This document shows, in pieces, positions 2,750-62,855 of a stretch of DNA of 64,000 bases (positions are counted from its first letter, which is position 1; each line of letters begins with the position of its first letter). The DNA lies in the sequence record OZ035773.1; one strand, 5' to 3'. The notes below the pieces were generated by a model. The model worked only from the letters and a program-made list of their open reading frames with translations, made no database searches and was not told the DNA's origin. This DNA is from Justusliebigvirus VEcB. A program made the translations under genes and the position numbers.

Positions 2750-2997
2750 GATCGACCTCCATTGCGGAATGCACGTTTAGTAATGTTTGACATAGTGATC
2801 AAATCTTGAAGCGTCATATCAGGAAAATGCTGTTCAAGAACACCTTCAACAGCGCCTACAATATCTGATAACTCAATAAGTTGCATCAGCTTGCAATCTT
2901 GATCAATAGCATCTTGAAGTTCATAAAGCTCTTCTTGAATCTTAGCAACAGAACCATATTCCTCTTTGCTAATCTCCTTCAAATGATACCCTGCCAC
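2746..2997 (-). CDS. MazG-like nucleotide pyrophosphohydrolase (small all-alpha NTP-PPase)
   Basis: 83 aa; EExxE..D metal-binding motifs (IQEELYELQDAIDQ, ELSDIVGAVEGV); SD AAGGGGGG. Confidence 0.55.
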   Translation of the reverse strand: MAGYHLKEISKEEYGSVAKIQEELYELQDAIDQDCKLMQLIELSDIVGAVEGVLEQHFPDMTLQDLITMSNITKRAFRNGGRS

Positions 2998-3008
2998 TTT
3001 AACCCCCC

Positions 3009-5783
3009 TTAGTTTACCAGTTTATTTATATCTGGTAAAAGATTTATTTCACCTAAGAAATCACCTTCACCTTCCTCTAGCCAACTCTCATATGCTTGTG
3101 CATGATTATAGTTACCATCAAAAGAATCTGCAACAAATTTTTCTACAGTTTTTCGAGATGTGCCAGCACCAAATACACCAAGTTTAATACCATTGATCGG
3201 TAAAGTGGTGCTTGTGGGTACTTTCTCTGTTGCAACACGGTTGATATCTATAATCTCCTGTACGGTTGTATTCCATTGTAAGCATTTAACACAACGGGTA
3301 TGCGCTACATACAGTAGGTTTCGCTCTGCCTCTTCTAGTCCTACCCATTCACCAGTCTTTTTATCATAATTGGAAGGAAAATCATTAGCAACAATAACCT
3401 GATCCCACTCCAAACCTTTAGACTTGTGTGCTGTAGTCAATGTGACTTTTGCTGTAGGAGAATTTCTATGCGTTCTAAGGGTATGTGCTATAGTGTTTGC
3501 CTTACCAGAAACTACAATGTTTAACAAGCGTTTAGCATCTGGATCAGCCTCTGCACACTCAACAAATTCATCCCAGTCTGCGTAAGGTAATACAGTTTCA
3601 TGTTTTACTTTCTCAATATCTCCTCTCCGAAGAGCATTAACACTATCTACCATAGAGATAAAATCCCTGGTATCTACGTTAATAATAATTTCTTCCCCAT
3701 CTGCAATACGATCCATTGCCTCCATAAGCAAGGTTAAATTCTTGCGAAAGATGATAGTGTAAGGTTTTGTATAGTCTACAACATCTGATTTGTAGCTACC
3801 TACTACAGTATCAAAGCCTTTACCAACCAAAGGATGACGCAAAGGTTCTTTATCGCTTAAAATCATATTGGCAATGTTTGCCACTTTGGGGCCAAAACGG
3901 AAGCAAGCAGTTAATGGAAGTTCTGCCCCATACTTAGCTGTTTCAATCATCATATTAGAGCTACCTCTAAATTGATAAATGCAGTTGTGGCTAAGAATTT
4001 CATTGCCAAAGAAGTTAGCAGTATCCTCTACTTCAATATCATAATAGATACCCTCACTATCTACAATGTCCACAATCTCTTCTGCCGTTACAGTATCACC
4101 ATCTTTTACCAACACAGACATGCCTTTAAACAAACCCGCTGCCGGAATTAAGTTATATTTGGCACTGTTCACAGAGGACATGCATTCTTTTAAAGATGCA
4201 AACGGAACTATTTCAAGGATCTTTTGTGCAAAACTCAATGCTTCACGATAAGAATTGAAATATTTACGTACACGGTAACGACCTTCCAATTTAGCAGCAC
4301 TTACGCTTACACCTGCTTTAATCAGTGAAGAATAGATCGGCATTTCACTTTCTGTCCACTCAAAACTAACTTGTGTTCCTTTACAACCTTGCGCTCGCAA
4401 AGTCACTGTTAGCATTTTTCTTTCATCTACTGCACAATTGATGCTGTGCCAGTGTGGATAAGCAAAATGATAATCTTTATCCTCTAAAAGTTTAAAACCA
4501 TTTTGTCCGAATTGTTCAAAGATGTTATTGATCTTTTCTTGATTAATGCCGCGTGAACTTGCTTCAAATACACAAGTAGGAATGCCATATTGTAAACTGT
4601 AAGCCATTTCTTTTTCCATAGCAGCTTCACGGTTTTCAACAATATCCAACACCCATAATTTCTGTGCTTTTTCAGAACGTGTACGTTGCCCCAGTTTAGA
4701 AAAACCTTCTTTATCATCGAATTTGTTAGTGATCCCTACTCGGAAACCTAAATCTTTCCTCCACATTAGGTATACCACCATCTGATCATCTTTCAGAACA
4801 TAGGATGAAGCCCAAATACGATGGTTATGTGTCATATCTAAAGTTTTACCTGTGGCAGTAATAATATTCCTACCTTTTGTACGTGTAGATAAAGTCTTAT
4901 TTGTTACTTTTCTAAATGTAATTTTACCATTAGAATAAGACTCTACCTTATCACCGATTTGTAGGTCTTTCATTGTAACCTGACCATTCTCGGTATTAAG
5001 TACCGTGTTTTCCGACACACATTGGAATTCGTCACCCACTACCACAATTTGTTTTGCAGATTTAGCATTTCGCAGAATAGACAAGAATGCAGGGTTAACA
5101 TCCTGGAATTCATCACCAAAAATAATATCATAACCAAGATCAGCACCAGACAATTCAAACAATTTTACATAGGTGTCATGCGTCATCAAAGTATCTGTAT
5201 TAGGATCAATGCGCTCTCGCCACAATTGTTTTGCATACTTAACTACTTCTGTAATTAGTTTGTGTTCGTTAATACCTTTTCTTTTAATATCTGCAAGATG
5301 TACACTAGGAAAATGTTTACGGCTGATAAAAGGATCATCCGAAAATTCAAACTTACCTACGGTTTGCTTGATCATTAAACCGATCATAGCACGAGTTAAA
5401 AGTGTTTTCCCTCGTTTATCAATAAGATTATTAATCTTAAATTTCTTTGCTATCTCGCTACCTGTACCTGCAACGTTAACATACTGTCCTTCTGGTCGTG
5501 ACAGTTTTGCACGTAAACGATGGTCCAGGAATTGATAGCAAATAGAATGCAATGTACGGCATTCTACATTTAGTGGCATCTTACGTCGTGCTTCTTCTGC
5601 CATGCTTTTATTGAAAGCTAAGTAAAGAATGCGATCTTCTGTACTGTTAGCCAGCAAATAAAGTGTTGACGTTTTGCCTGATCCAGATTTAGCTTGGATA
5701 GTTAAAAAGCGATGGTCTGGAAAAGCCTCCTTAATAGCTGTTTGCTCTTCTGTTGGAGTGAAGCTCAACTCTTTCTTAGCCAT
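3009..5783 (-). CDS. UvrD/PcrA-like SF1 DNA helicase, interrupted by an intein
   Basis: Walker A AKSGSGKTST, motif II GDEFQD, motif III GDEFQ|CIYQFRG split by in-frame insert; start placed at ATG 5783 (SD AAGAGAGG), track ORF extends 13 codons further. Confidence 0.8.
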   Translation of the reverse strand: MAKKELSFTPTEEQTAIKEAFPDHRFLTIQAKSGSGKTSTLYLLANSTEDRILYLAFNKSMAEEARRKMPLNVECRTLHSICYQFLDHRLRAKLSRPEGQYVNVAGTGSEIAKKFKINNLIDKRGKTLLTRAMIGLMIKQTVGKFEFSDDPFISRKHFPSVHLADIKRKGINEHKLITEVVKYAKQLWRERIDPNTDTLMTHDTYVKLFELSGADLGYDIIFGDEFQDVNPAFLSILRNAKSAKQIVVVGDEFQCVSENTVLNTENGQVTMKDLQIGDKVESYSNGKITFRKVTNKTLSTRTKGRNIITATGKTLDMTHNHRIWASSYVLKDDQMVVYLMWRKDLGFRVGITNKFDDKEGFSKLGQRTRSEKAQKLWVLDIVENREAAMEKEMAYSLQYGIPTCVFEASSRGINQEKINNIFEQFGQNGFKLLEDKDYHFAYPHWHSINCAVDERKMLTVTLRAQGCKGTQVSFEWTESEMPIYSSLIKAGVSVSAAKLEGRYRVRKYFNSYREALSFAQKILEIVPFASLKECMSSVNSAKYNLIPAAGLFKGMSVLVKDGDTVTAEEIVDIVDSEGIYYDIEVEDTANFFGNEILSHNCIYQFRGSSNMMIETAKYGAELPLTACFRFGPKVANIANMILSDKEPLRHPLVGKGFDTVVGSYKSDVVDYTKPYTIIFRKNLTLLMEAMDRIADGEEIIINVDTRDFISMVDSVNALRRGDIEKVKHETVLPYADWDEFVECAEADPDAKRLLNIVVSGKANTIAHTLRTHRNSPTAKVTLTTAHKSKGLEWDQVIVANDFPSNYDKKTGEWVGLEEAERNLLYVAHTRCVKCLQWNTTVQEIIDINRVATEKVPTSTTLPINGIKLGVFGAGTSRKTVEKFVADSFDGNYNHAQAYESWLEEGEGDFLGEINLLPDINKLVN
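3984..5021 (-). mobile_element. intein (346 aa) within helicase motif III
   Basis: Insert begins with Cys (CVSENTVL), has TxxH block (THNHRIW), ends ...SHN followed by Cys (+1); flanked by contiguous helicase motif III halves. Confidence 0.7.
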
Positions 5784-5784
5784 T

Positions 5785-6261
5785 TCAACCTCTCTTAATT
5801 TGTTTAACAAGCATAGGAACAAAATCTCGTTTTAAAATTTGTTCAATAATATGATCAGGTAGCTGTTGGAAATTATAATTAAAAGCTACTGTCTCACCTT
5901 TAGGTGTTTCTACCCGCACATATAACATGTTACGAAGTTTATCCACTTGTGCTGTATATTCTAAACCATGTAATTGATGCATTGCAAACATCAAATCATC
6001 AGTTTCAGTTTGGAATCTATCATTTGCTTGCATTAAGGATAAGGTAAAAGGTAGATTTTCCCTAAGAGCCACCTTCTTAGGAACTAGTGAAGGAAAATAC
6101 TCACCAATAACTTCCTGTGTAAGCTGGATACACTCTTTTTCAAGTTGGTTTTGTTCCTTAAGTTCACAAACACTTTTTTGTAAAGTGTTAACCTCTTTTT
6201 GCAAAGCTGCTAGTTGAGCACTTAACTTTCTTTTTTGATTACGACCAAAACGTTTAGACAT
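5785..6261 (-). CDS. hypothetical protein (158 aa), coiled-coil N-terminus
   Basis: Track ORF; SD AGGGGGAAAT upstream. Confidence 0.5.
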   Translation of the reverse strand: MSKRFGRNQKRKLSAQLAALQKEVNTLQKSVCELKEQNQLEKECIQLTQEVIGEYFPSLVPKKVALRENLPFTLSLMQANDRFQTETDDLMFAMHQLHGLEYTAQVDKLRNMLYVRVETPKGETVAFNYNFQQLPDHIIEQILKRDFVPMLVKQIKRG

Positions 6262-6269
6262 ATTTCCCC

Positions 6270-6785
6270 CTAGTAAAACCCTTTAACAATCTGTATTAAC
6301 TCGGCACAACGGTTGACCAACTTTTCCTCATACAATACACGTTGTGGCATATGTTGTATAATATACTCCATTTGCTCATGCCATGTCCACTTTTCTTTTT
6401 TGTCTGGGATAACATCACTAGCACGAGAATTATCTTTTAATGTTTGTATAATCCAATTGCTTGGAAAGTGCTCTCCACCTTTCTTAAATGGTTTATAGTG
6501 GCCTAGAGTAAATTGAGAATCCCCTGTTAGAGCACCCAATTTATTTAGATGGATAATCAAACTACGAAACACGTAGTATTCATAGATGTTATCCACCGTA
6601 TAGCAAGCATAATATTTCAAGATGCCCTTATCTCGCGGATACTTACCAACATCCAGATTGCACCAGTTGACATTTTCTGGATCATAGTGGTGTTCCTTAA
6701 GCCATATTTCTCTTTCATCAAAGTCTGGATATATTACCGCTCTGCTTACAGAGTCAACAAGTGGAGATTGAGCATCAAAAAACAT
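6270..6785 (-). CDS. hypothetical protein (171 aa)
   Basis: Track ORF; SD TAAGGAAAA upstream. Confidence 0.5.
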   Translation of the reverse strand: MFFDAQSPLVDSVSRAVIYPDFDEREIWLKEHHYDPENVNWCNLDVGKYPRDKGILKYYACYTVDNIYEYYVFRSLIIHLNKLGALTGDSQFTLGHYKPFKKGGEHFPSNWIIQTLKDNSRASDVIPDKKEKWTWHEQMEYIIQHMPQRVLYEEKLVNRCAELIQIVKGFY

Positions 6786-14808: not shown

Positions 14809-15981
14809 ATGACAGCACCAAAATCATGGGAACAATATAAAGAAGAATTAACACCCCTTGCTAAAAATCGCAATATTCAAATCCTGGGTTATGTTGGTGA
14901 ATGGAAAGGGAACAAGACTAAACTTAAGCTATCTTGCCCTAAACATGGAGAGTGGAACACCACGAACATTAATGATTTTAAGAAGGGACGTGGTTGTCCT
15001 ATCTGTTCTGGTAAGAAGCCGTTAACATGGGAAACAGAATTGCCGATCTTGGAAGAGATAGCACAGAAGAGGGGGTATCAGGTGTTAGGGTACGTGGGAG
15101 AATGGAAAGGGAATAAAACAAAACTTGATTTGTTGTGTCATTGTGGTAATAAATGGGATACTACAAGTATTAACAATTTTAAACGTGGTAGCGGTTGTCC
15201 ACAATGTAAGAGGGAGAGACAAACAATGTCCGACGATCAACATATTGCAGATTTCTTTTCTACAGGGGAATTTAAGGAAGGCACTATCTTCACCAATACA
15301 GGGAAACGTAACAAGCGTGATGCAGTATGGATGGTTGAGTGTCCTGTTTGCTCCCATGATGAATATGTTCAAGCAGGTGTTTGTGATGGTAAATTTTACT
15401 CTGCAGGACATAACCTTAAACAAGGGTATATTCCGTGTCGTTGTGGGAACTATCAGTATACAGAAGACCAGATCACCTATAGGGTAAAAAAGGAAGTAGA
15501 AGGGAAAGGGTATGTCTGGGTAGATTGGATTACCAAACCATCTTCTATAGGTAAGTTTAAATATCTTTGTCTTGTGCATGGGGAGCAGATAGGGAGTGCT
15601 CGTAATTTATTAAGCCTCGGTCAAGGTTGTCCACAGTGTGCTGGTCATAGTCAGCAGCAATTGTATGTTAATGTTGTTAAAGATAATGGTATTATAGTTG
15701 CTCTTAAGTTTGGTATATCTAAAGATAGCGATAGACGATTAAACGGTCAAAATAGCCGTAATCTGTTTTTTATGGAGCGTATTTGTTTATATGATTTTAG
15801 CACAGTGAAACAATGTAGGGCTGCTGAAAGAGCTATAAAGAAAAAATTAAAAACTGGTATTTTAACGGCAAGAGAGTTGAAAGATGGTTATACAGAAACA
15901 GTAAGTGTTTCTGATTTGGAAAATCTTCAAAAAATTATTACACAATATGGTGGCAAATTAGTATACAGTAAGGAGGTGTAA
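14809..15981 (+). CDS. zinc-ribbon repeat protein with C-terminal GIY-YIG-like (T5orf172-type) domain; putative nuclease
   Basis: Four repeats of C-x-x-(C/H)...G-x-G-C-P-x-C; C-terminus LYVNVV...KFGIS.D..RL...AERAIKKKL resembles T5orf172/GIY-YIG; SD AAGAGGAG. Confidence 0.5.
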   Translation: MTAPKSWEQYKEELTPLAKNRNIQILGYVGEWKGNKTKLKLSCPKHGEWNTTNINDFKKGRGCPICSGKKPLTWETELPILEEIAQKRGYQVLGYVGEWKGNKTKLDLLCHCGNKWDTTSINNFKRGSGCPQCKRERQTMSDDQHIADFFSTGEFKEGTIFTNTGKRNKRDAVWMVECPVCSHDEYVQAGVCDGKFYSAGHNLKQGYIPCRCGNYQYTEDQITYRVKKEVEGKGYVWVDWITKPSSIGKFKYLCLVHGEQIGSARNLLSLGQGCPQCAGHSQQQLYVNVVKDNGIIVALKFGISKDSDRRLNGQNSRNLFFMERICLYDFSTVKQCRAAERAIKKKLKTGILTARELKDGYTETVSVSDLENLQKIITQYGGKLVYSKEV

Positions 15982-16533
15982 ATGCGGATTACTGATAAGT
16001 ATGTGTTCTTCTTCTCGGCAAAAGATGAATTTAGCAACTGGTATCTATCATCTTTTATTGAACCTTTAGCTCCCAAGTATAATAATTCTATTACAAGTTC
16101 TGTTGAATTTACTTGTGTGGAACAATATATGATGTGGAGAAAAGCATGTTTGTTTTATGATTACAACATTGCATCTTCTATTTTAACCGGAGATCTAAGA
16201 TATACAGGAGAAAAAGAACAGGCATATTATAAGCGACTAGGTAGATTAGTTAAAGATTACGATGAAGCTACTTGGACTTCTTTACGGGAGAAGATTGTCA
16301 AGCGTGGTTTGTATCTTAAATACACACAAAATGAAGATCTCAAAAATAAACTTATAGCTTACGCAGATAAGGAGTTTGTAGAAGCAAGCCCTTATGATTC
16401 TATTTATGGTATCAAAATTGGGATGTGGGATCGGGACGTGGAAAATAAGGATTGTTGGAAAGGACAAAATCTTTTAGGAAAATGGCATACAGACCTTGCT
16501 GTTTATCTAAAAGCACAATCTGATATTTCCTGA
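15982..16533 (+). CDS. NADAR (YbiA-like, DUF1768) domain protein
   Basis: FFFSAKDEFSNWYLS...EQYMMWRKA...KRLGRLV...ASPYDSIYGIKIG...WKGQNLLGK match NADAR signature blocks; SD AGGAGGTG. Confidence 0.65.
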   Translation: MRITDKYVFFFSAKDEFSNWYLSSFIEPLAPKYNNSITSSVEFTCVEQYMMWRKACLFYDYNIASSILTGDLRYTGEKEQAYYKRLGRLVKDYDEATWTSLREKIVKRGLYLKYTQNEDLKNKLIAYADKEFVEASPYDSIYGIKIGMWDRDVENKDCWKGQNLLGKWHTDLAVYLKAQSDIS

Positions 16534-40863: not shown

Positions 40864-41676
40864 TTATTTAGTCAAATGATCTTCTATCATTTTTATGAAA
40901 GCAGGATTGCTAAAAGCATCTGCGGCCTTTTCTCGATAAACAAAAACTCCTCTATCTTCGTAAAGAAGAGTTTCTTCGTAATTAATTCCTGGGTTAACAA
41001 CAATCATTTTTGTACCCATACTAAGTGCAGGGAATAATTCCCAATTAAAATTGATAACTTGGTTTGAACATCCTACTACAACAACCAAATCTTGCATGGT
41101 CAAAGTATCAAACAAGTGATCCATATCTGCATACAAAGGTGCAGCCTCACCAAAAAATACAACATTAGGCTTCACCCAGTTATAATCATCTATGTTTATA
41201 CTATTGTAACCAATGTCTACCAGTGTTTTGTAATCTCCAGGATGCATACGGTAAACTACTTCAGGAAGATATCCGTGCACGTGGATAACAGAATCCCTGT
41301 CTACACCTGCTCGCTCTAGTAGATCATCAACGTTTGTTGTCAAGTTTACTACTTGGTTAGGATATTCCTTAAACCACTTTGCTATTTGAATATGTGCAGC
41401 ATTAGGTTGTACATCTTTAAGCTCAACACGTCTTTTGTTATAAAATTCGTGTGTTTTGGCATACAAATCCATACCGTTTTCGTCTACACCACCAACCACT
41501 GGAAGATCTGGTGATGTTCTCACACGATAACCTGCTTGGAAAGCTCCAATATCGCAGATCTCTTCTAAATCCCATTCTTCCCATAGGGCACGACCACTAT
41601 CTGTGTCTGTTCGGAATGTTCGAATCCCACTGTCTGCACTTAAACCAGCTCCACTAACAAAAATTACTCTTCGCAT
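40864..41676 (-). CDS. Sir2 (sirtuin)-family protein lacking the zinc-ribbon module
   Basis: Sirtuin motifs GAGLSADSGIRTFR, TTNVDDL, VIHVHG, VVFFGE, VVVVGCS; no CxxC...CxxC pair; SD AAGAGGA. Confidence 0.7.
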   Translation of the reverse strand: MRRVIFVSGAGLSADSGIRTFRTDTDSGRALWEEWDLEEICDIGAFQAGYRVRTSPDLPVVGGVDENGMDLYAKTHEFYNKRRVELKDVQPNAAHIQIAKWFKEYPNQVVNLTTNVDDLLERAGVDRDSVIHVHGYLPEVVYRMHPGDYKTLVDIGYNSINIDDYNWVKPNVVFFGEAAPLYADMDHLFDTLTMQDLVVVVGCSNQVINFNWELFPALSMGTKMIVVNPGINYEETLLYEDRGVFVYREKAADAFSNPAFIKMIEDHLTK

Positions 41677-42218
41677 TCAATATCCTCTTCGTAATCATCA
41701 TCCCAAGAAGATGCGTCGTAACGCTCTTCCTCTTCGAAATCCCAATTAATTTCTACTCCAAAATCTAAAAACAATTTAACAATGTTTTCTGTAGAGTAGT
41801 ATTTATCATAAGCATCAGCTAGTTCCCAATACTTGTCACTCAATTTTTTATATTTAGGATCATTATAGTCATAATCTACTTTATAACCATAATCATACAT
41901 CTCTTGTTCAGCTTTAAGCATAGCTTCTGGCGTAAGAAGATTAGGGAACGGACGATTTCTTTCTTTTAACTTAGAAACAATCCAGTTTGCAACATTTGCC
42001 ACTTCACCATCTTGATTATCACCTAAACAACTTGCATAATCTCCATCTTCGTAAGTGCCTAAATCCCCACAGACTTCATGTACAATAGATGAATACGATC
42101 CACACGTTTCACAATCTGAAAAAGTGTCTACTGTTGTAATATCAATAGATAAAACTGGTAAAGCCATAGCTTCTTTCACACAAGCCTCCTCATATAATAA
42201 CATATCATCAAAACCCAT
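41664..42218 (-). CDS. hypothetical acidic protein (184 aa)
   Basis: Start placed at ATG 42218 with SD GGAGGATAT; track ORF 5 codons longer. Confidence 0.5.
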   Translation of the reverse strand: MGFDDMLLYEEACVKEAMALPVLSIDITTVDTFSDCETCGSYSSIVHEVCGDLGTYEDGDYASCLGDNQDGEVANVANWIVSKLKERNRPFPNLLTPEAMLKAEQEMYDYGYKVDYDYNDPKYKKLSDKYWELADAYDKYYSTENIVKLFLDFGVEINWDFEEEERYDASSWDDDYEEDIECEE

Positions 42219-42231
42219 ATATCCTCCACAC

Positions 42232-42256
42232 AAATAAAGCCCCTGATTGGGGCTTT
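42232..42256 (-). terminator. rho-independent terminator (minus strand)
   Basis: AGCCCC-aatca-GGGGCT followed by TTATTTG on minus strand. Confidence 0.5.
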
Positions 42257-47237: not shown

Positions 47238-47810
47238 TTAATGTGTTAATGAAACTGCATAACTAAACACAGGTTCAGATATTACATCGGCTACAGTAAT
47301 AAAAACGTCCTCGTCTTGCGTTGTTTCTACACGACATACAGTTACACCATTTACCACGAATTCAACGCAATGTGGAATATCTTCACAAACGAAGGTAGTG
47401 TAAGTAACACCCAAAGCATCATACAAAGATTTAACAGTGTTTGCAAGTGCCGCAGTTTCTTCTTTTTCTGAGACAATGAATGCTGTAACAATAAGATTGT
47501 TTGCATAGTTTAGACTGTCCTCTATAGCCAATGATTTACAAGGTAGTAATGCAAAATATTTACCTGGTTTAATCAGACCTGCTTCCCATTGATTCAAAAT
47601 TGCCTGGGATGGTTTAGTAATATAAAATAGATTTTCACTTGGGTTATCAATATTACTTCTGGCGATACAACGTGAAGGATTATTAATATCAAATACATGA
47701 TCAAAATCTACACAAACAGGTAAACTGAAAGGTGTAAATTTTTTACCTAATAATCCTATGGCTGATAATATGTTTGCTGTGCTTATCTTCCCGTTAAAAG
47801 CTAAACGCAT
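47238..47810 (-). CDS. hypothetical protein (190 aa)
   Basis: Track ORF; SD AAAGGAG. Confidence 0.55.
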   Translation of the reverse strand: MRLAFNGKISTANILSAIGLLGKKFTPFSLPVCVDFDHVFDINNPSRCIARSNIDNPSENLFYITKPSQAILNQWEAGLIKPGKYFALLPCKSLAIEDSLNYANNLIVTAFIVSEKEETAALANTVKSLYDALGVTYTTFVCEDIPHCVEFVVNGVTVCRVETTQDEDVFITVADVISEPVFSYAVSLTH

Positions 47811-52141: not shown

Positions 52142-52642
52142 TTAGTTATAAGCGTCTAATGTTCCAGTTTTAAGCACCTGAATTACACGCTCTGCGCGAT
52201 TAGGCGTTTGGCGATACCATTTACTTTTACGTAAATTTATAGAGGCTTGAGTATAATATGAATTACTCACTAAAGTCAAGCTATTTTTGAAAGATTCTGC
52301 ACCTTTCAATCCCATTTGAAATACCATATTAATAATAGCCATTTTACGATTAGGACTTACTTTATCGTAAATAGGAGATAATATGGTGCTTGAATGGATT
52401 TGTTGTATCGCTTTCTTTACGTCACTCTCAAAGATTCTTCTAGCTTCCGCTTCAGTAATAACTCCATTGGTTTTTCTACCTACTAAGTTATCAAGAATGC
52501 GTATAGCTTCTGCTTTATCTTTGAGTTTTGTCAGAAGGTGTCCAATACCAACTGTCCAATACCCTTCGGTATCAGGATATACAGTTAGCTTTAGTCCTTC
52601 ATCAAAACGTAACATATCAAACACATCAACTACTTTAGCCAT
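52142..52642 (-). CDS. T4-type lysozyme (GH24 endolysin-like)
   Basis: MLRFDEGLKLTVYPDTEGYWTVGIGHLLTK and C-terminal RQTPNRAERVIQVLKTGTLDAY match T4 lysozyme signature regions; SD TAAGGAAAAC. Confidence 0.85.
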   Translation of the reverse strand: MAKVVDVFDMLRFDEGLKLTVYPDTEGYWTVGIGHLLTKLKDKAEAIRILDNLVGRKTNGVITEAEARRIFESDVKKAIQQIHSSTILSPIYDKVSPNRKMAIINMVFQMGLKGAESFKNSLTLVSNSYYTQASINLRKSKWYRQTPNRAERVIQVLKTGTLDAYN

Positions 52643-52802: not shown

Positions 52803-53063
52803 TTACTCCGCAATCTGAGCCATGAATTCACGTAGTTCAGAAAAACCTCCTACGTGGGTTAGCTGTTCACCATCTTCCACAAAAATCTGAGGAAATGTGC
52901 GTGGTAGAACACCTGTTTTCTCTAAAACCAGATTCTGAATCTGATCTAAAGAATAGTCTTCATCTAAGGTAAGGTATTTAAAATCCTGTTCACGCTGTTC
53001 TAGTAGAATCTTAGCGTTAGTGCAGAAAGGACAATTTGGTTTACCGTAGATAATAAAATTCAT
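52803..53063 (-). CDS. glutaredoxin-like redoxin (CPFC active site)
   Basis: From ATG 53063 (SD AAGGAG): MNFIIYGKPNCPFCTNAK...GGFSELREF; sits beside RNR genes. Confidence 0.7.
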   Translation of the reverse strand: MNFIIYGKPNCPFCTNAKILLEQREQDFKYLTLDEDYSLDQIQNLVLEKTGVLPRTFPQIFVEDGEQLTHVGGFSELREFMAQIAE

Positions 53064-53065
53064 TT

Positions 53066-53896
53066 TCACTCCTTGTTTAAAAGTATAGTTAAAGTTCTTA
53101 CAATACCGCTATCAACACTTCGCGGATTTAAAGTAGGATCTGTTTTTAAATAAGATGTTGCTGGTCTGACTGCTTTGGAATTATAGGTTGAAGCAGACAC
53201 AGGATTAACTGTAACAGATAAATCTATAACAAGAAATATCTTACGTGCAAAATCATACCAAGAAATATAATCTGCACCTGCATAGTGTACAATTTTACTA
53301 TTTACACCATCTTTTACAAGTTTAAAAATTGTTTCTGCAAGATCAGGTGCATAAGTAGGACATGACAAATGATCACATACTACATTAAATTCTTTTTGAC
53401 CACCGTTGTAGCGTTCCAACATAGTTTTCAAAAAGTTATGTCCAAATTCACTATAAACAGAAGCTGTTCTGATAATAAGTGCTGTAGGACAAACTGTTTG
53501 TACTAAAGTTTCACCTAATTGTTTACTGTAACCGTAGGTGTTCAAGGGGTTTGTTTTACTATCTTCTGTGCCAGCAACATGCCCATCAAAAACATAGTCT
53601 GTTGAAATATGTACAAACTGTATCAGTAAATCATTACATGCTTTGGCAATGTTTGTTGCACCGTATGCATTAACATTTATACAGGTGTTAACATCTTCTT
53701 CAGCTTTATCTACTGCCGTGTAAGCCGCACAATTCACAACAACATCAGGCACATGCTGTACAAGACTATTCATAACATCTTTAAAGTTGGTAATGTCTAC
53801 ATCACTTGCTTCAATCAAAATAACATCTTCGGGCGCAACTTTTGCCAAAGACTGTCCTAATTGACCTTTTGAACCAAAGATTAAAAATTTTGTCAA
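53066..53896 (-). CDS. rmlD: dTDP-4-dehydrorhamnose reductase
   Basis: N-terminal FLIFGSKGQLGQSL Rossmann motif, ~276 aa, last gene of rml operon. Confidence 0.75.
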   Translation of the reverse strand: MTKFLIFGSKGQLGQSLAKVAPEDVILIEASDVDITNFKDVMNSLVQHVPDVVVNCAAYTAVDKAEEDVNTCINVNAYGATNIAKACNDLLIQFVHISTDYVFDGHVAGTEDSKTNPLNTYGYSKQLGETLVQTVCPTALIIRTASVYSEFGHNFLKTMLERYNGGQKEFNVVCDHLSCPTYAPDLAETIFKLVKDGVNSKIVHYAGADYISWYDFARKIFLVIDLSVTVNPVSASTYNSKAVRPATSYLKTDPTLNPRSVDSGIVRTLTILLNKE

Positions 53897-54447
53897 AATA
53901 TGATCTCCTTTAGTGTTTTGGCTTGCTGATCTTTTTGTGACAAGATAGGTTTAAAATTAATATCATTAAAGATTAAATCAAAACCCCAATCAATATTGAT
54001 ATCTGGATCATTCCACGCAAGACTACACTCTGAAGTCGGATCGTAATATTCTGTACATTTATATTCAAAATCAGCAATGTCACTAATCACAACAAAGCCA
54101 TGAGCGAAACCAGGAGGAATCCAAAATTGTGTTTTATTCTTTTCAGATAAGAGAACACCTACCCATTCTCCAAATGTTGGACTACCAACTCTAATATCCA
54201 CAGCAACATCATAAACTTCACCACGAACACAACGTACTAACTTCCCTTGTGGGTTTTTCTTTTGAAAATGAAGCCCACGTAGAACTCCTCGGATAGAACG
54301 TGAATGGTTATCTTGGACAAAGTTTTGTTTACCTATGTATTGATCATATAAAGCCTGATTAAAACTTTCTAAGAAAAAACCACGTTCATCTCCGTAAACG
54401 TCTGGTTGAATGATCAACAAATCTTCGATTTTTGTTGCTTGAATCAT
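53893..54447 (-). CDS. rmlC: dTDP-4-dehydrorhamnose 3,5-epimerase
   Basis: IRGVLRGLHFQ..., FWIPPGFAHGF cupin motifs typical of RmlC; 184 aa. Confidence 0.8.
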   Translation of the reverse strand: MIQATKIEDLLIIQPDVYGDERGFFLESFNQALYDQYIGKQNFVQDNHSRSIRGVLRGLHFQKKNPQGKLVRCVRGEVYDVAVDIRVGSPTFGEWVGVLLSEKNKTQFWIPPGFAHGFVVISDIADFEYKCTEYYDPTSECSLAWNDPDINIDWGFDLIFNDINFKPILSQKDQQAKTLKEIIF

Positions 54448-54459
54448 TTAATCTCCCCT

Positions 54460-55329
54460 TTATTTTAATTTAAGTAAATACTTGCCGTAGTCTGTTTTAC
54501 TTAAAACCTCTCCAGAACTTTTTACAGAATCTAAAGTAATCCATTCATTTTTAAAAGCAATCTCTTCTAGGCATGCAACCTTCATACCTTGTTGCTTTTC
54601 TATTGCATGAACAAATTGAGATGCTTCCATAAGACTTTCATGTGTTCCTGTATCCAGCCAAGTGAAACCTCTTCCTAGCTTACAGACACGTAAAGCCTTT
54701 TCTTTCCAGTACATCTCATTTATATCTGTGATCTCTAACTCTCCTCTAGCAGAAGGCTTAACGCTTTTAGCTTTCTGTATAACAGAATTATCGTAAAAGT
54801 ACAAGCCTGTAATTGCATAGTTGCTTTTTGGTGCTTTTGGTTTTTCTTCAATACTTACCACTGTACCTTCAGAATCAAACTCAACAACACCAAATCTTTC
54901 AGGATCATTTACGTGATACCCAAAAATATTAGCTCCACCATTCTTTTCAATATGTTCTTTAGCAGAATCTAAAATGCTACCAAAACTCTGACCAAAGAAT
55001 AAATTATCACCTAGCACAAGTGCTACAGAATCTTCACCAATAAAGTTCTCACCAATAATAAACGCTTCTGCTAAACCTTTTGGGCTATCCTGTATTGCAT
55101 ACTGTAGGGAAATACCAAAAGAAGAACCGTCACCTAGAAGATTTACAAAATTAATTTGATCTTCTGGTGTTGTAATTATTAGTATTTCCCTAATTCCAGA
55201 AAGCATTAGGACAGAGAGTGGATAATAAATCATAGGTTTATCGTAAATTGGTAATAGTTGTTTACTAACCCCTTTAGTAACTGGGTAAAGTCTTGTTCCA
55301 CTACCACCTGCTAAGATAATACCTTTCAT
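54460..55329 (-). CDS. rmlA: glucose-1-phosphate thymidylyltransferase
   Basis: [35 protein letters not shown] signature; 289 aa. Confidence 0.85.
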
Positions 55330-55337
55330 ACTCCTCC

Positions 55338-56327
55338 TTAAACTTTATTTTCCCACCACTCTTTGTTATCTACATACCAATCAATGGTTGAATAAAGTTT
55401 TTCTTCAAATGTGCCTTTAGCTTTCCACCCTAATTCCTTTTCAATCTTATAAGGATTCACTTCATATCTTAGATCATGCCCAGGCCTATCTGTAACCATC
55501 TCAATGAGGCTACAAGCATCTGTTTCAGATGGATATACCGCATCCATATAATCACAAATCATATAGATTACATCAATATTAGTTCTAGGGTTTCTGCTCC
55601 CAATATTATATGTTTCTCCAGATTTGCCTTTAGTTACTACTAGGTGTAATGCTTCTGCGTGATCGTCAACGTATAGCCAGTCTCTTACTTGAAGACCATT
55701 GCCATAAACAGGGATTGGTTTATTCATTAAGATATTTGTTATCGTCTTAGGTATTAGTTTTTCTGGATGATGATACGCTCCAAAATTATTTGAACAATTT
55801 GTTATAACTGTCGGAATACCATAAGTACGATGCCACGCTCTTACCAAATGATCGCTTGCAGCTTTAGATGCGGCATATGGACTACTTGGTTTATAAGGAT
55901 TCTGTTCTGTAAACGGATAATCCCCTTCTTCCATATCACCATACACTTCATCTGTTGAAATATGATGAAACATTTTAAGATTTGATTTATCTCCCATTAA
56001 ACGAACAGCTTCTAGAAGATTAAATGTTCCAACGATATTTGAATTTATAAAAACACTCGGTGATGCTATTGAATTATCTACGTGACTTTCTGCTGCAAGA
56101 TGCATTATATAATCTGGGTTAACATCTGCCACAATCTTAGCAGTTAACTGAGCATTTGTCAAGTCAACACGACAAAACTTTACATTAGGTGTTTCTGATA
56201 AATTTCTAGGGTCTGAAGCGTAACCCCATTTATCTATAACGTAAATATCATTCTTAGTATTTTTAGCCAGGAAACGAACTACTGCACTTCCAATAAAACC
56301 TAAACCACCTGTTACTAAGTATTTCAT
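55338..56327 (-). CDS. rmlB: dTDP-glucose 4,6-dehydratase
   Basis: [28 protein letters not shown] (YxxxK SDR catalytic motif); 329 aa. Confidence 0.85.
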
Positions 56328-56534: not shown

Positions 56535-56861
56535 TTACCAAACGTGTTGAGAAATAATAGTTTCCGTTTCAATGTTATATTTTTCAAGAAGTTGTGCATA
56601 GGCTTCTTTTGCATTCTTATTTAGTTGCTCAAGATCTACAGCTACACTTCCTTCGCCACCTTCTAAATAAATCCCATATATGCAATAAGATGCATCAGCG
56701 TCATAGAAAGGTGAGATACGGCTTAAATCAAGACCTTCTTGTAAGAACCAATTAAAATCTCCATCAAATTCTTCTTCAATTCTAGGATCTTCTCCTACAG
56801 CCTCTTCCCATTTATTAAAAGGTGCGCCCTGTAACATACGCCATTCAATATTAGTTCCCAT
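56535..56861 (-). CDS. hypothetical acidic protein (108 aa)
   Basis: Track ORF; SD AGGAGGAAGATA. Confidence 0.55.
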   Translation of the reverse strand: MGTNIEWRMLQGAPFNKWEEAVGEDPRIEEEFDGDFNWFLQEGLDLSRISPFYDADASYCIYGIYLEGGEGSVAVDLEQLNKNAKEAYAQLLEKYNIETETIISQHVW

Positions 56862-57182: not shown

Positions 57183-57393
57183 CTTTTTCTCCTTTGATAA
57201 TTTCAAACTTGGCTACACCATTAACTATAATATGACCGCAAGACAGAACTCCTAGCCAATGATCACCATTCTTTTTTAAACGTTTACCGTAAACATCACA
57301 GAAACCATTCTGTAATTCGGAAGCCTCGTAAGAGGCTCCCTTTTCGAAAACGTCTTTGAAGTCAGAAATTAATCCAACACAAAGTAGTTTCAT
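57175..57393 (-). CDS. hypothetical protein (72 aa)
   Basis: Track ORF; SD GAGGAG. Confidence 0.5.
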   Translation of the reverse strand: MKLLCVGLISDFKDVFEKGASYEASELQNGFCDVYGKRLKKNGDHWLGVLSCGHIIVNGVAKFEIIKGEKDD

Positions 57394-58478
57394 TAGAAGT
57401 CTAACTCCTCGTCATCACTTACATCTTTATTTGCTGAATTCAGTTTGTAAGCTGTAATTTGGATCTCCTGTGCTGCTGCTTGAATTTGATCTGGATTTAA
57501 CCAAACATCCATCCAAGGCAGTGGACTTTTCTTCGGTGCACGGAATTTGTGTTTCATTTTCAGTCTGCGATAGATAGGCGCAGCATTGAAGTAAACCCAA
57601 AGTTTGAACAACTCTGCGTTACCACCAACGATAATCCTTCCTTCACTAAACAGATAGTCACACCAATCTTCCTCTTGTCCAACTACCGTGTCAAGAATTT
57701 CTGTCAGAACGTCGATATTATCTTCGTATACTTTTCTCCAGACAGGATCTTTCAGCAGTGCATCAATAATAGCATAATCCATTTTAACGTGCAATAGTTC
57801 ATCCAACATAATTTTTTGAATGAGTTTAGCTGCACCTACAAACAGTTGCTGCTCTGCTAAGGCAAATGTTGCAGCAAAAGATGATATGAATTGAATGCCT
57901 TCCAGACCGATAAGTGCAATCATTCCTTTCAGAATCAGTAGACGAAGGTTATCATCCTTCTCAATCAGACCTAGAGCATATTTATGTCCTGCCTCTGCCA
58001 GATCACTCATTATCTCTTCAACTATACCCATCCTCTGGAAGATTCTTTCGTTCTCCATAATCTGATCGATAACTTCATTTGGATTAGGGATACACTGACG
58101 AATAATTTCAGAATATGTCAAAGCGTGTAAAACTTCCATTTCTGATTGCTTCATCATCATTGCACATGCTTCGTTGTTGCTTAAAAATGGTGCAAACAAA
58201 GTGATGATTGATTTAGCAAGTGAATCATTTTCCCATTGGAAAGATAGGTTTTTGATCATAACATCATAGTTGCTTTTAGAACAAGCTACGAAATCTTTTC
58301 GTGTCTGATCTAAGTTTACTTCGTTTTCATCCCAATCTTGCTGTTTTTGTAGTTTGTACAGACGATGCATTTCTGGGTATGTTACATTAATAGAATCAAA
58401 AATACCTAACTGTTCTCCCAAAAACACAGGGTAGAAACCTTCTTTGTAAGTGTCGTTGTATAAGTTAATTGCTGCCAT
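57393..58478 (-). CDS. nrdB: ribonucleotide reductase class Ia beta subunit
   Basis: 361 aa; ferritin-like di-iron pattern and acidic C-terminal tail (...DEELDF); adjacent to nrdA; SD GGAGGA. Confidence 0.85.
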   Translation of the reverse strand: MAAINLYNDTYKEGFYPVFLGEQLGIFDSINVTYPEMHRLYKLQKQQDWDENEVNLDQTRKDFVACSKSNYDVMIKNLSFQWENDSLAKSIITLFAPFLSNNEACAMMMKQSEMEVLHALTYSEIIRQCIPNPNEVIDQIMENERIFQRMGIVEEIMSDLAEAGHKYALGLIEKDDNLRLLILKGMIALIGLEGIQFISSFAATFALAEQQLFVGAAKLIQKIMLDELLHVKMDYAIIDALLKDPVWRKVYEDNIDVLTEILDTVVGQEEDWCDYLFSEGRIIVGGNAELFKLWVYFNAAPIYRRLKMKHKFRAPKKSPLPWMDVWLNPDQIQAAAQEIQITAYKLNSANKDVSDDEELDF

Positions 58479-58840: not shown

Positions 58841-61102
58841 TTACATCTTACAAGCCTCACAACCGGATTCTTCATCCTCTTGAGCGAGTGAGGTTGCCGA
58901 TTTTGTTCTGCTATTTAGATAGTACAAAGATTTACCACCAAGTTTTGCAAACTGAAGAATATATTGCATTTCTGATTTAATGGATAAACGACCACCTTCC
59001 ATCTTAGAATAGTCAATCCACTTATCACATGATGCACCTTGATCTAAGAATTTAGTCAACAGTCCATATGCTTCAGCCATATCTTTATCTGGCGTATCCC
59101 AAGCCGATTGGTAAATATCTTTTAGTTTATCGTAGTCTGGCACAATAAACAGAACATTACCCTTTTGGCTTTGTTTATAAACTATAGTATCACGTACAGG
59201 ATACACAGAGTTAGTCGTATTACTTACAAGACTACTGGACTCATTTGGAGCAATAGCTGCTAATACGCTATTTCGGATACCACCTTGTGCAATGATATCT
59301 TGTCGTAAACCTTCCCAATCCATTTTAAGTTTAAAATTGCCAATATCGTCTACAGCTTTAGCGTAGGTGTCAATAGGCAACCATCCTTCAGGCCATTTGG
59401 TTTTATGCATCCATTCTGCATTACCTTTCTCTTTTGCCAAACGAAGAGAAGCTCTTGCTAACCAATAATAATGTCTTTCTGCTAATTCGTGAATTAGTTT
59501 TTTGCCGTAAGGATCTGAATAAGTAACAAAATTACTTGCCAGATAATGTGCAAGGTTTGTAATACCTACACCGATAGATCTACGTGCTTTAGCAGTGATT
59601 TCGTTATGTTTAAACGGATACTGCATTGTTTCAATAACATTATCAATAGTTAGAACGGTATAATATGCAACATCTTCATATTCTTCTGGTGTAACACGAC
59701 CAGCTACAATAGAAGACAGGAAGCATAATGCCAACTCTTGATCTTCTGTATTCTCACCTGTGAAAAGATCAGTCATATTGTGAAATGCTTTCGTAGGTAA
59801 GAAAATTTCTTGGCACAAGTTTGACTGGTAAATAACATCCTTAAACGGAGTATGCTTATTAGCATTATCCGCAAAGAACATATAAATACGTCCTGTCTCT
59901 GCTCTTTGTGTAATAATTTCTGCCAGAAGATCTCGTGCTTTTACAAACTTCTTCTTAATTCGTTTGCGACTAACTTTTTCATATACTTCTTCAAACTCTT
60001 CCTCGCTTTTATAAAGCGCCTCATAGAGTTCTGGTGCTTCGTCATAACTGACTAGCATCCAATCTTTACCTTTTGCTGCACGGCGCAGGAAAGCATTGTT
60101 TACTACAATAGAGTAATCAAGTTTATCTACTCGTTTTTCACTAACAGTAGTTGGGTTTTTCAAACGTACCAGATCTTCAAAATCAGGTTCTAGTATTGTA
60201 AACGTTACCGTTGCACTTCCACCACGACTTGCTTGTTTTGATGCTCCAACACTTGTTTCCATCCATTTCAGATATGGTAAAAGACCACCGTGAACGATAC
60301 GGTTGTTCTTAACACCTTGTCCTGTAGCACGGGTTTGGAGGTTAACACCAATACCTGCATTATTCAATGTATATTCATGAGCAAGATAGTTAGCAATTGC
60401 TAAAGATTCTGCTGTATCATCTGCTCTAAACAGACAACAAGAAGCACTACCTTTAATCTTAGTACGCAACGTTGTTAAATAAGGCGATGGTAAATTAATC
60501 TTAAGATCACTTACGTAGGTATATAGACGTTTAATGTCTTCTACTCTGCGATCTTTTGGTTGAATTTCCATTACCTTCATTGCTACACCAATGAATAAAA
60601 ACTGTGGTGATTCAAAAACAACATTATTGATCGCATCTTTCACAAGATACTTATCAACCATCTGGCGCAGTACGGAATAACCATAAGTTAGGTTTTTATC
60701 GTGATTGACAATTTTACCAATCTCAATAATTTCTTCTTCTGTATAATCCATCTTCCCCCAATAGCCTTTACTTACAGACATATTGTAGAAATCCAGGAGG
60801 GAGGGGATATTGTGATATCCCCCATGAGCCTGTTTATAGATCATACCAAGAAGTAACCGACCTGCCATATCACTATATGCCTGATCTTTCTTATCAATAC
60901 ATGCTGCTATCATAGCTTTATGTAAATCACGAGTAGGCACACCGTCGTAACAACGTTTAACAGCTTCGAGTTCAATTTCAGACCAATTTAATTTACCAGC
61001 AGCAAACTCTGACCATTTACGAAGTTTTTCTGGATTAAATTCTTCTTTCTTGCCGTTTGTTTTTGTTACATAACGGATAGATTTGCTTAGATACTGAGTC
61101 AC
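58841..61102 (-). CDS. nrdA: ribonucleotide reductase class Ia alpha subunit
   Basis: 753 aa; C-terminal Cys pair (...CEACKM); GTG start with SD AGGAGAGG. Confidence 0.85.
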   Translation of the reverse strand: MTQYLSKSIRYVTKTNGKKEEFNPEKLRKWSEFAAGKLNWSEIELEAVKRCYDGVPTRDLHKAMIAACIDKKDQAYSDMAGRLLLGMIYKQAHGGYHNIPSLLDFYNMSVSKGYWGKMDYTEEEIIEIGKIVNHDKNLTYGYSVLRQMVDKYLVKDAINNVVFESPQFLFIGVAMKVMEIQPKDRRVEDIKRLYTYVSDLKINLPSPYLTTLRTKIKGSASCCLFRADDTAESLAIANYLAHEYTLNNAGIGVNLQTRATGQGVKNNRIVHGGLLPYLKWMETSVGASKQASRGGSATVTFTILEPDFEDLVRLKNPTTVSEKRVDKLDYSIVVNNAFLRRAAKGKDWMLVSYDEAPELYEALYKSEEEFEEVYEKVSRKRIKKKFVKARDLLAEIITQRAETGRIYMFFADNANKHTPFKDVIYQSNLCQEIFLPTKAFHNMTDLFTGENTEDQELALCFLSSIVAGRVTPEEYEDVAYYTVLTIDNVIETMQYPFKHNEITAKARRSIGVGITNLAHYLASNFVTYSDPYGKKLIHELAERHYYWLARASLRLAKEKGNAEWMHKTKWPEGWLPIDTYAKAVDDIGNFKLKMDWEGLRQDIIAQGGIRNSVLAAIAPNESSSLVSNTTNSVYPVRDTIVYKQSQKGNVLFIVPDYDKLKDIYQSAWDTPDKDMAEAYGLLTKFLDQGASCDKWIDYSKMEGGRLSIKSEMQYILQFAKLGGKSLYYLNSRTKSATSLAQEDEESGCEACKM

Positions 61103-61883: not shown

Positions 61884-62855
61884 TCACCATTTTGTATGGT
61901 TAGTCAAAAGTTGACGATGTTGAATCCAACCACAGAAGTTTCCACTCCACAAACGATGTTTACGATCCATATGTGTAATACCTTCTTCCCAAGAGGTAGG
62001 GAACGGAGGAATATTAATACCACCTTTCTGTTGTTTTAATCCTGACAAATCCATTTCTTTCATTGGCGTTGCCTGGTGTTCAAACGGAGATGCATGTACC
62101 TTTTGTCCAGACAGCAAACGAGAATAGATATCCAATGCTTTATCTTTGGTATCATTCAATTTACGATAACTTACCTGAGCGCAACAAGAAGCTGAAATAG
62201 CTTTTGCTTCCTCTTCTGTCAACATTTTCTCGTTGGAGAAGGTTTCACCCAAGAAATAACGGATCATACCAGTTTCTGGATCTCGATCACGATTAACGTA
62301 AGGTGTATGCCATTCCCCTGGGAAAAGAAGATATGGTTCAGAAGATTCATACAGTTTTTTAATTTCTTTAGCAAGAGCCTCAATAGTAGGATCTGCATCA
62401 GCATCTACGCGCAACCACAAGAAGTTTTCTAGCTCTGTAGTGGTTACTACAGTCTTCATACGCTGGAATGGTTCTAGTAGGCGGTTTGCAACCTGTTTAT
62501 GATAACCAGCAAGGGCAAACTCTTCTGCAAAACGTGCAGCACTTAGCGCAGCCAAGTCCCACCATTCTTTTGCAGTGTAACCTGCATCAATCAGGGCATC
62601 GTGATCTGTGCCTTTATCTTGCATACCTGGTTGGTTAGCACCAAAACGATAAGGACGTGCTGGAGATTGCCGTACCATTTCAATTAGAGTTTTAACAGGG
62701 ATAGCTCGACTTGATGCGGCATTACGAGAAAACAAACGATGCGTCATCAATTCAGAGTGAATGATTCGAGGATATTCAAGTTCAAAGGTAACAATATCCT
62801 TACCTTCAGATGTTTGAGAGTGTGCAATAATTTTTGCTGAAATAGAGTTTGTCAT
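61884..62855 (-). CDS. thyX: flavin-dependent thymidylate synthase
   Basis: ThyX signature THRLFSRNAASSRAIP (RHR..S.N..S.R-type); 323 aa. Confidence 0.75.
   Translation of the reverse strand: MTNSISAKIIAHSQTSEGKDIVTFELEYPRIIHSELMTHRLFSRNAASSRAIPVKTLIEMVRQSPARPYRFGANQPGMQDKGTDHDALIDAGYTAKEWWDLAALSAARFAEEFALAGYHKQVANRLLEPFQRMKTVVTTTELENFLWLRVDADADPTIEALAKEIKKLYESSEPYLLFPGEWHTPYVNRDRDPETGMIRYFLGETFSNEKMLTEEEAKAISASCCAQVSYRKLNDTKDKALDIYSRLLSGQKVHASPFEHQATPMKEMDLSGLKQQKGGINIPPFPTSWEEGITHMDRKHRLWSGNFCGWIQHRQLLTNHTKW

Follow-up and report, generated by a model that had tools for sequence, protein, structure and literature searches.

A complete dTDP-L-rhamnose pathway in Justusliebigvirus VEcB and related coliphages as a candidate sugar-donor supply for virion glycosylation

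Introduction

The rfb/rml operon of bacteria such as Escherichia coli and Salmonella (rfbBDAC) encodes the enzymes for deoxythymidine diphosphate (dTDP)-L-rhamnose. Among viruses, T-even phages glycosylate their DNA, with glucosyl-hydroxymethylcytosine in T4 and arabinosyl-hydroxymethylcytosine in RB69-like phages, and Mimivirus uses uridine diphosphate (UDP)-L-rhamnose synthesis and glycosyltransferases (GTs) to glycosylate the fibrils of its own particle. For mycobacteriophages, two papers state that Che8, Corndog, and Myrna add glycans to proteins of their capsids and tail tubes (PMC12363180; PMC11256854, on Freeman et al., 2023). In this work, we analyzed 64,000 nucleotides from Justusliebigvirus VEcB (sequence record OZ035773.1; one strand, 5' to 3'; hereafter the window), which contain a complete set of rml genes at 53066-56327. 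We tentatively favor a role of this pathway as the sugar-donor supply for glycosylation of virion proteins.

Compared with the bacterial operon, the phage genes encode members of the same four enzyme families, and the catalytic residues are shared. The differences are a DNA identity to E. coli of only about 65%, a gene order of B-A-C-D rather than B-D-A-C, an RmlD that is nearer to Firmicute structures than to that of Salmonella, and a location in the lytic early/metabolic block without adjacent O-antigen GTs, flippase, or polymerase. The mycobacteriophage cassettes resemble the system described here in having soluble phage GTs, and one of the GTs reported below (GT-A) is homologous to a domain of Mutaforma13 gp102. 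However, Che8 gp108-110 are not detectably homologous to the phage GTs, the host here is Gram-negative, the sugar donor is self-made, and the GT, sugar, and structural genes are mutually non-adjacent. Mimivirus likewise has virus-encoded synthesis of a rhamnose nucleotide, and its GTs R699 and R655 are among the fold neighbors of GT-A, whereas its route is UDP-based and of eukaryotic type, with unrelated enzymes and host domain. Finally, glycan islands of cyanophages and jumbo phages in IMG/VR combine RmlC with sugar-nucleotide dehydratases, aminotransferases, methyltransferases, and GTs, but contain RmlC alone or RmlB and RmlC rather than the full four-gene route.

The rml operon

Four tightly packed, co-directional open reading frames (ORFs) on the minus strand encode RmlB, RmlA, RmlC, and RmlD (Table 1). 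Gaps of 8 and 12 nt separate rmlB from rmlA and rmlA from rmlC, respectively, and rmlC and rmlD overlap by 4 nt. All four proteins exceed the curated NCBIfam equivalog cut-offs by which identity was assigned (E-values from 1e-75 to 1e-142), the Pfam scan is concordant for each, and the catalytic motifs are intact. These results confirm the complete rmlBACD set claimed in a preliminary description of this DNA. RmlB retains the short-chain dehydrogenase/reductase (SDR) signatures GxxGxxG, STDE (with Thr-Asp-Glu), and YxxxK (YAASK) of Salmonella RmlB (1g1a), its top PDB match (394 bits). The alignment of RmlA to its top match, Salmonella RmlA (1iim; 419 bits), shows that the GGSGTRL loop, EEKP, and WLDTG are kept and the catalytic Lys and Asp are in place. 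The cupin epimerase RmlC shares the catalytic His (RGLHFQ), Lys (GKLVRC), and Tyr (YKxTxYY) with Salmonella RmlC (1dzr; top match, 219 bits). For RmlD, alignment to solved structures shows a conserved Thr/Tyr/Lys triad (STDYVF and YGYSK), and the best PDB matches are from Bacillus (3sc6) and Clostridium (1vl0) at approximately 153 bits, with Salmonella 1kbz lower at 125 bits. As sampled by PDB entries, the nearest structures to RmlB, RmlA, and RmlC are enterobacterial, and the operon may be of mosaic origin with a Firmicute-like RmlD. Taken together, the four genes look like an intact, functional dTDP-L-rhamnose pathway.

The preliminary description had allowed for host contamination or misassembly. 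This explanation is ruled out by more than 50 independent and complete genomes of Justusliebigvirus (phi92-like coliphages in Stephanstirmvirinae), which are 98.4-99.0% identical to the window across 6.5 kb around the operon. These include vB-Eco-KMB37, alia, PD06, EmilieFrey, PaulScherrer, muut, and BME3, and most of the records already have the four rml genes annotated. In comparison, all 5,426 complete E. coli genomes match the operon with a DNA identity of only about 65%, across no more than 52% of its length. The GC content of the operon is uniform (0.35-0.37). In addition, several records of about 146 kb are labeled as Campylobacter phages with C. jejuni as host (MG065639, MG065645, MG065656, MG065689, and others). 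Their rml and GT genes share 99% identity with those of Justusliebigvirus coliphages, and they are probably mislabeled or contaminant coliphages.

Table 1. Positions of the rml genes, their flanking genes, the GT genes of EmilieFrey, and other features. Positions refer to the window unless another sequence is named.
Feature	Position	Strand	Assignment
rmlB	55338-56327	minus	dTDP-glucose 4,6-dehydratase, 329 aa; TIGR01181, 443 bits (cut-off 365)
rmlA	54460-55329	minus	glucose-1-phosphate thymidylyltransferase, 289 aa; TIGR01207, 473 bits (cut-off 361)
rmlC	53893-54447	minus	dTDP-4-dehydrorhamnose 3,5-epimerase, 184 aa; TIGR01221, 260 bits (cut-off 156)
rmlD	53066-53896	minus	dTDP-4-dehydrorhamnose reductase, 276 aa; TIGR01214, 254 bits (cut-off 224)
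glutaredoxin gene	52803-53069	minus	Pfam Glutaredoxin, E = 9e-12
lysozyme gene	52142-52642		downstream of rml
acidic 108-aa ORF	56535-56861	minus	no Pfam match; just upstream of the rml block
nrdB	57393-58478		upstream of rml
nrdA	58841-61102		upstream of rml; thyX and tk beyond
thyX	61884-62855	minus	divergent thymidylate synthase, 323 aa
bas61_0046, bas61_0047	EmilieFrey 44.5-47.7 kb		GT-B paralogues, GT4-like; phrog_7162; Pfam Glyco_trans_1_2
bas61_0048	EmilieFrey 44.5-47.7 kb		GT-A, GT2/GT7-like; phrog_2456
bas61_0049	EmilieFrey 44.5-47.7 kb		further GT; phrog_14179
weak GT-A homologue	L036:5985-6662		unrelated IMG/VR contig of 6.8 kb; hmmsearch E = 2e-5
helicase ORF	3009-5822	minus	UvrD/Rep-type, 937 aa
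intein in helicase ORF	roughly 3984-5024	minus	Pfam Intein_splicing/Hint, residues ~267-613
~190-aa ORFs	2177-2749, 41664-42233, 47238-47810	minus	"putative aminoacyl-tRNA synthetase" in related records; no Pfam match
144-aa ORF	1730-2164		YqeY/GatB-like
Sir2 gene	40864-41676		NAD+/ADP-ribose gene
NADAR gene	15982-16533		NAD+/ADP-ribose gene
macrodomain and phosphoribosyltransferase genes	EmilieFrey L003:6875-8441		NAD+/ADP-ribose genes
PRPP synthetase and NAMPT genes	EmilieFrey L001:44383-46495		NAD+/ADP-ribose genes
CapR-homology gene	14809-15981	plus	390 aa; three CapR-homology domains and T5orf172
tellurite-resistance-like genes	EmilieFrey L003:418-1212, 2459-3562, 5341-6318		TerF-type vWA, TelA, and TerC

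Glycosyltransferase genes

The preliminary description also stated that the window has no GT and suggested a search in the rest of the genome. For the window, the absence stands: Pfam scans of about 50 ORFs, together with tblastn and hmmsearch using the GT families of the phage, detected none. For the genome it does not, as the near-identical EmilieFrey carries four GT genes (Table 1). The window corresponds to approximately 62.3-127.0 kb of EmilieFrey, which places the GT genes about 15 kb past its left end, next to primase/helicase and DNA polymerase genes. All four GTs are predicted to be soluble, with no transmembrane helix and a maximum Kyte-Doolittle 19-residue mean of 1.21 or less. The GT-A, GT-B, and bas61_0049 families are each found in approximately 135-140 Stephanstirmvirinae records. 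This is the same set of records that contains RmlC, and it spans all genera, including Klebsiella phages KP13-26 and 05F01 as well as Tr1. In the phage database, none of the three families was found in Vequintavirus, the sister group.

GT-A belongs to a small and phage-restricted family (17 clusters) with an invariant FDDD (DXD) motif and a YGxED motif. Its AlphaFold model (pLDDT 88) has GT2, GT27, and GT7 enzymes as fold neighbors, among them GlfT2, polypeptide GalNAc-T1, beta4GalT7, the Listeria rhamnosyltransferase RmlT, and the dTDP-binding SpsA. The family profile had no significant match among PDB sequences. The GT-B model (pLDDT 94) is GT4-like, with neighbors including the protein O-GlcNAc transferase GtfA, and the T4 alpha- and beta-glucosyltransferases (AGT and BGT) rank only 18th and 31st. 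We also considered an EarP-like rhamnosylation of protein arginine by the GT-B paralogues; this candidate was rejected, with EarP outside the top 60 fold neighbors.

Relatives of the glycosyltransferases and possible virion glycosylation

The contexts in which relatives of these GTs occur appear to be the most informative evidence on the acceptor of rhamnose. The only distant phage relatives of GT-A are GTs of cluster-F mycobacteriophages, and the GT-A family aligns with the N-terminal part of one of them, Mutaforma13 gp102, at an hhalign probability of 99.1% (E = 5e-19, N-terminal domain). This gene shares one right-end cassette with gp105, which is 88% identical to Che8 gp110, a protein described in the same two papers as essential for capsid glycosylation (PMC12363180; PMC11256854). 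In an unrelated 36-kb uncultured phage (L012), a GT-A homologue (hhalign 98.2%) and a GT-B homologue (33% identical) open an operon of terminase, portal, MuF, protease, and capsid genes and point away from the replication genes. Similarly, Streptomyces phage Zuko has a nucleotide-sugar SDR enzyme and a GT-B homologue directly before terminase, portal, and capsid genes, and the bas61_0049 homologue of Cellulophaga phage phi18:2 lies between portal/MuF and protease/capsid genes. In Burkholderia dolosa, the gene preceding a GT-B homologue encodes an invasin-type adhesin. A weak GT-A homologue was also observed in an unrelated IMG/VR contig, with genes for RmlC and an SDR enzyme a few kb away (Table 1).

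These linkages to head-morphogenesis modules and to a Che8-type cassette make virion glycosylation the best supported among the functions listed in the preliminary description. RmlA would join glucose-1-phosphate and deoxythymidine triphosphate (dTTP) into dTDP-glucose, RmlB would convert this to dTDP-4-keto-6-deoxyglucose, and RmlC and RmlD would turn the keto-sugar into dTDP-L-rhamnose. By keeping the pathway, Stephanstirmvirinae phages would ensure that infected cells make dTDP-L-rhamnose regardless of the O-antigen genes of the host. The product would then be consumed by the soluble GTs of the phage, encoded beside the DNA polymerase and primase genes. The likeliest acceptors would be virion proteins of the capsid, tail, or fibers, which may thereby acquire a rhamnose-containing glycan coat. 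We infer both the use of dTDP-rhamnose as donor by these enzymes and the nature of the acceptor. That Stephanstirmvirinae coliphages build such a glycan on their own virion proteins, with a self-made donor and four GTs, is possible and is put forward with some reserve. The remaining probability falls to something else, such as other phage proteins or host proteins as acceptors.

Several observations weigh against virion glycosylation. The GTs of Stephanstirmvirinae flank primase and DNA polymerase genes rather than structural genes, and GT-B remains adjacent to the primase even in a phage with a GT-B of only 39% identity. The rml genes lie in the nucleotide-metabolism module and the GT genes in the replication module, neither with structural genes. 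Profiles of GT-A and GT-B did not match Che8 gp108, gp109, or gp110, such that the link to a proven case of virion glycosylation appears to be one of cassette position and not of orthology. Fold similarity among predicted models identifies neither donor nor acceptor, and the co-occurrence of rml and GT genes, seen in one viral lineage, provides weak evidence that they are functionally coupled. GT4 enzymes are typically of the retaining type with UDP- or guanosine diphosphate (GDP)-sugars as donors, so dTDP-rhamnose may be used by only some of the four GTs. Furthermore, our literature searches did not turn up any account of Stephanstirmvirinae virions being examined by glycoprotein staining, mass spectrometry, or sugar analysis. 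As a separate observation, virion protein termini were checked for Ser/Thr-rich tails, and the C-termini of the sheath (…NSQNSNSSTVSS) and of the portal are suggestive, not evidence.

The same enzymes could instead act on the host envelope. The GTs and dTDP-rhamnose would then alter the lipopolysaccharide core, O-antigen, or intermediates of the enterobacterial common antigen (ECA) at the cytoplasmic face of the membrane, an explanation that we consider unlikely. Similarly unlikely is the associated benefit, namely that the altered envelope would mask or change the receptor of the phage itself and limit superinfection as well as loss of progeny on cell debris. These phages are strictly lytic, which leaves little time for a surface change to act. 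Annotation and family scans revealed no flippase, polymerase, or Gtr-type membrane component; the parts of a Gtr-type seroconversion module that were looked for were the GtrA flippase, the bactoprenol GT GtrB, and a polytopic serotype-specific GT, and none of these appeared. Moreover, surface remodeling leaves unexplained why relatives of three GT types lie inside head-morphogenesis modules or a virion-glycosylation cassette.

Selection, inheritance, and reduced forms of the pathway

The rml genes are under strong purifying selection. Between the window and EmilieFrey, the four genes have 36 synonymous and 7 non-synonymous differences, and their dN/dS ratios (0.04-0.06) are comparable to those of nrdA, nrdB, and phoH. 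The arrangement of nrdA, nrdB, small ORFs, rml, glutaredoxin, lysozyme, and phoH is a site shared with phAPEC8 and the Klebsiella phages 05F01 and KP13-26. The Rml proteins have diverged faster than their neighbors (54-72% identity to phAPEC8, compared with 84-87% for NrdA/B). Nevertheless, the ranking of identity is the same for Rml and neighboring genes (KP13-26 > phAPEC8 > 05F01) and fits vertical inheritance.

The composition of the module varies. KP13-26 has only rmlC-rmlD at the rml site, and a 149-kb IMG/VR contig (L023) has rmlA-C-D without rmlB. The gene rmlC is part of a module core that does not vary within the subfamily. Among 80 viral loci with an RmlC homologue, the full four-gene route is confined to Stephanstirmvirinae-like contigs, and the remaining loci have RmlC alone or RmlB and RmlC. 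All Enterobacterales make dTDP-4-keto-6-deoxyglucose for ECA through RffH and RffG. In such hosts, RmlC and RmlD are the minimum for dTDP-L-rhamnose, because the host enzymes supply the 4-keto intermediate. These patterns would be explained if it is the end product that matters, with rmlC-rmlD as the indispensable core and rmlA and rmlB as flux boosters.

The reduced modules also bear on the possibility that the pathway is a metabolic sink, which drains dTDP-4-keto-6-deoxyglucose and halts ECA or O-antigen synthesis, or buffers dTTP, with rhamnose never being attached. We regard this as very improbable. A dTTP sink, as suggested by the preliminary description, would need RmlA, and the retention of only rmlC-rmlD in KP13-26 shows that members without RmlA and RmlB exist. 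The position of the pathway next to dTTP-producing enzymes would fit a sink. A dead-end sink would however be self-limiting, given that dTDP-rhamnose feedback-inhibits RmlA. A drain on ECA would be attractive in that the intermediate is shared with this antigen, which is the receptor of the phage (PMC8594841), but RmlA and RmlB would raise the supply of the ECA precursor and oppose the drain. Finally, the four conserved GTs that co-occur with the pathway argue against a route in which the sugar is not used.

Genomic site and proposed DNA modification

The flanks given in the preliminary description are correct, with glutaredoxin and lysozyme genes downstream, and nrdB and nrdA followed by thyX and tk upstream (Table 1). 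The glutaredoxin gene overlaps the rmlD stop codon by 4 nt and is part of the same transcription block, but lies outside the sugar pathway; its synteny with rml is kept in phAPEC8, KP13-26, and 05F01. The acidic 108-aa ORF is 92% identical in phAPEC8, which makes it more conserved than the Rml proteins, and 46% identical in KP13-26. In both phages it directly precedes the first rml gene, whichever one this is, and it may be functionally tied to the rml module, its membership being uncertain. A scan for promoters and terminators across 50-64 kb gave counts at the level expected from shuffled sequences.

In the Vequintavirus phage ime, thyX-nrdA-nrdB leads to nrdD/nrdG and on to phoH, and rml genes are absent from the site. 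The rml cassette appears to be an accessory element inserted in a conserved backbone of metabolic genes, because the thyX-nrdA-nrdB...phoH-protease arrangement also exists in Vequintavirus, which has no rml at this site. Its neighbors tell little of its function. This undermines the suggestion in the preliminary description that proximity to ribonucleotide reductase, thyX, and tk favors a nucleotide- or DNA-linked role, which also finds no support in the hydroxymethylase search and the restriction data given below.

A DNA-linked role has been proposed in print. Olsen et al. found it "peculiar" that rml lies in the DNA-metabolism region and suggested that hydroxymethylated nucleotides are rhamnosylated (PMC7552041). 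The presence of the rml pathway and the idea of DNA glycosylation are thus already known from two papers (Olsen et al., 2020; Maffei et al., 2021), and our literature searches found no experimental test of rml function. In this scenario, rhamnose would be moved onto a modified base of the phage DNA in a T-even-like manner, maybe at a subset of sites. The phage shares with T-even systems the combination of nucleotide sugars and its own GTs among early/metabolic genes, and the general GT-B fold. The location of rml among genes for deoxynucleotide synthesis, and of the GTs beside primase/helicase and DNA polymerase genes, fits this idea, as does the persistence of the GT-B/primase adjacency despite sequence divergence. 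GT-A also has sub-threshold similarity to the PHROG of the T-even hydroxymethylcytosine glucosyltransferase (phrog_842, E = 5e-5) and to the TET-associated glycosyltransferase (TAGT) family (23.3 bits, gathering cut-off 27.5, residues 16-75 only), and AGT and BGT appear among the GT-B fold neighbors at the ranks given above. In principle, a Dcm-like C5-methyltransferase in the phage could feed a TET route.

We nevertheless consider DNA modification quite unlikely. A hydroxymethylase or a TET/JBP enzyme would be needed, because the base must gain an acceptor hydroxyl. In contrast to T-even phages, Pfam and PHROGs scans of about 70 ORFs from the window and the remainder of EmilieFrey revealed neither a ThyA-type hydroxymethylase nor a TET/JBP dioxygenase. 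The sole candidate of hydroxymethylase type is the long and divergent ThyX, which has only 36.9 bits to Pfam Thy1, a strong match to phrog_85, and the signature T-H-R...S-S-R-A in place of the usual R-H-R...S-x-R-Y. The similarity of GT-A to TAGT and to the hydroxymethylcytosine glucosyltransferase is restricted to the generic nucleotide-binding N-terminus and appears not to be specific to DNA GTs. Broad resistance to restriction-modification (RM) is likewise absent: phi92-like members of the BASEL collection have been reported as "exceptionally susceptible" to six RM systems of types I, II, and III, despite a "putative dTDP glycosylation machinery" (PMC8594841). Four GTs would be an unusual number for a DNA system, and their relatives elsewhere are linked to structural genes. 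The neighbors of RmlC in 13 unrelated large viral contigs are genes for sugar-nucleotide dehydratases/epimerases, aminotransferases, methyltransferases, and GTs, and the only DNA-modification gene among them is one thymidylate synthase. A DNA-linked role is therefore poorly supported, with nothing positive for a modification restricted to certain sites.

Other genome features

Additional features were observed in the window and in EmilieFrey (Table 1). The UvrD/Rep-type helicase ORF contains an intein between the N- and C-terminal helicase domains; the EmilieFrey orthologue has 578 aa, and its genome is approximately 1,039 bp shorter at that point. Three ORFs of about 190 aa are annotated as synthetases in related records, and a further ORF is YqeY/GatB-like. 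Genes related to nicotinamide adenine dinucleotide (NAD+) and adenosine diphosphate (ADP)-ribose are numerous, with Sir2 and NADAR in the window and macrodomain, phosphoribosyltransferase, phosphoribosyl pyrophosphate (PRPP) synthetase, and NAMPT genes in EmilieFrey. This rich set suggests NAD+ salvage or counter-defense. The gene with three CapR-homology domains has a shorter counterpart in EmilieFrey (978 bp). Finally, tellurite-resistance-like genes are present in this lytic coliphage in a part of the EmilieFrey genome beyond the window.

Implications

What accepts the rhamnose made by the phage is a small question that is testable in the public BASEL phages EmilieFrey, PaulScherrer, and JohannJBalmer on E. 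coli K-12. If virion glycosylation is true, these phages would provide the first documented glycosylated virion of a phage that infects a Gram-negative host, and the first tailed phage known to encode every step between sugar phosphate and virion glycan. Phages similar to phi92 and phAPEC8 have a broad host range and are candidates for use in therapy directed at E. coli and Klebsiella. For such therapeutic phages, virion glycosylation would have consequences for antibody recognition, stability, or adhesion. With a glycan coat of their own making, their immunogenicity, their clearance from blood, and their stability would change, as has been reported for mycobacteriophages that are glycosylated.

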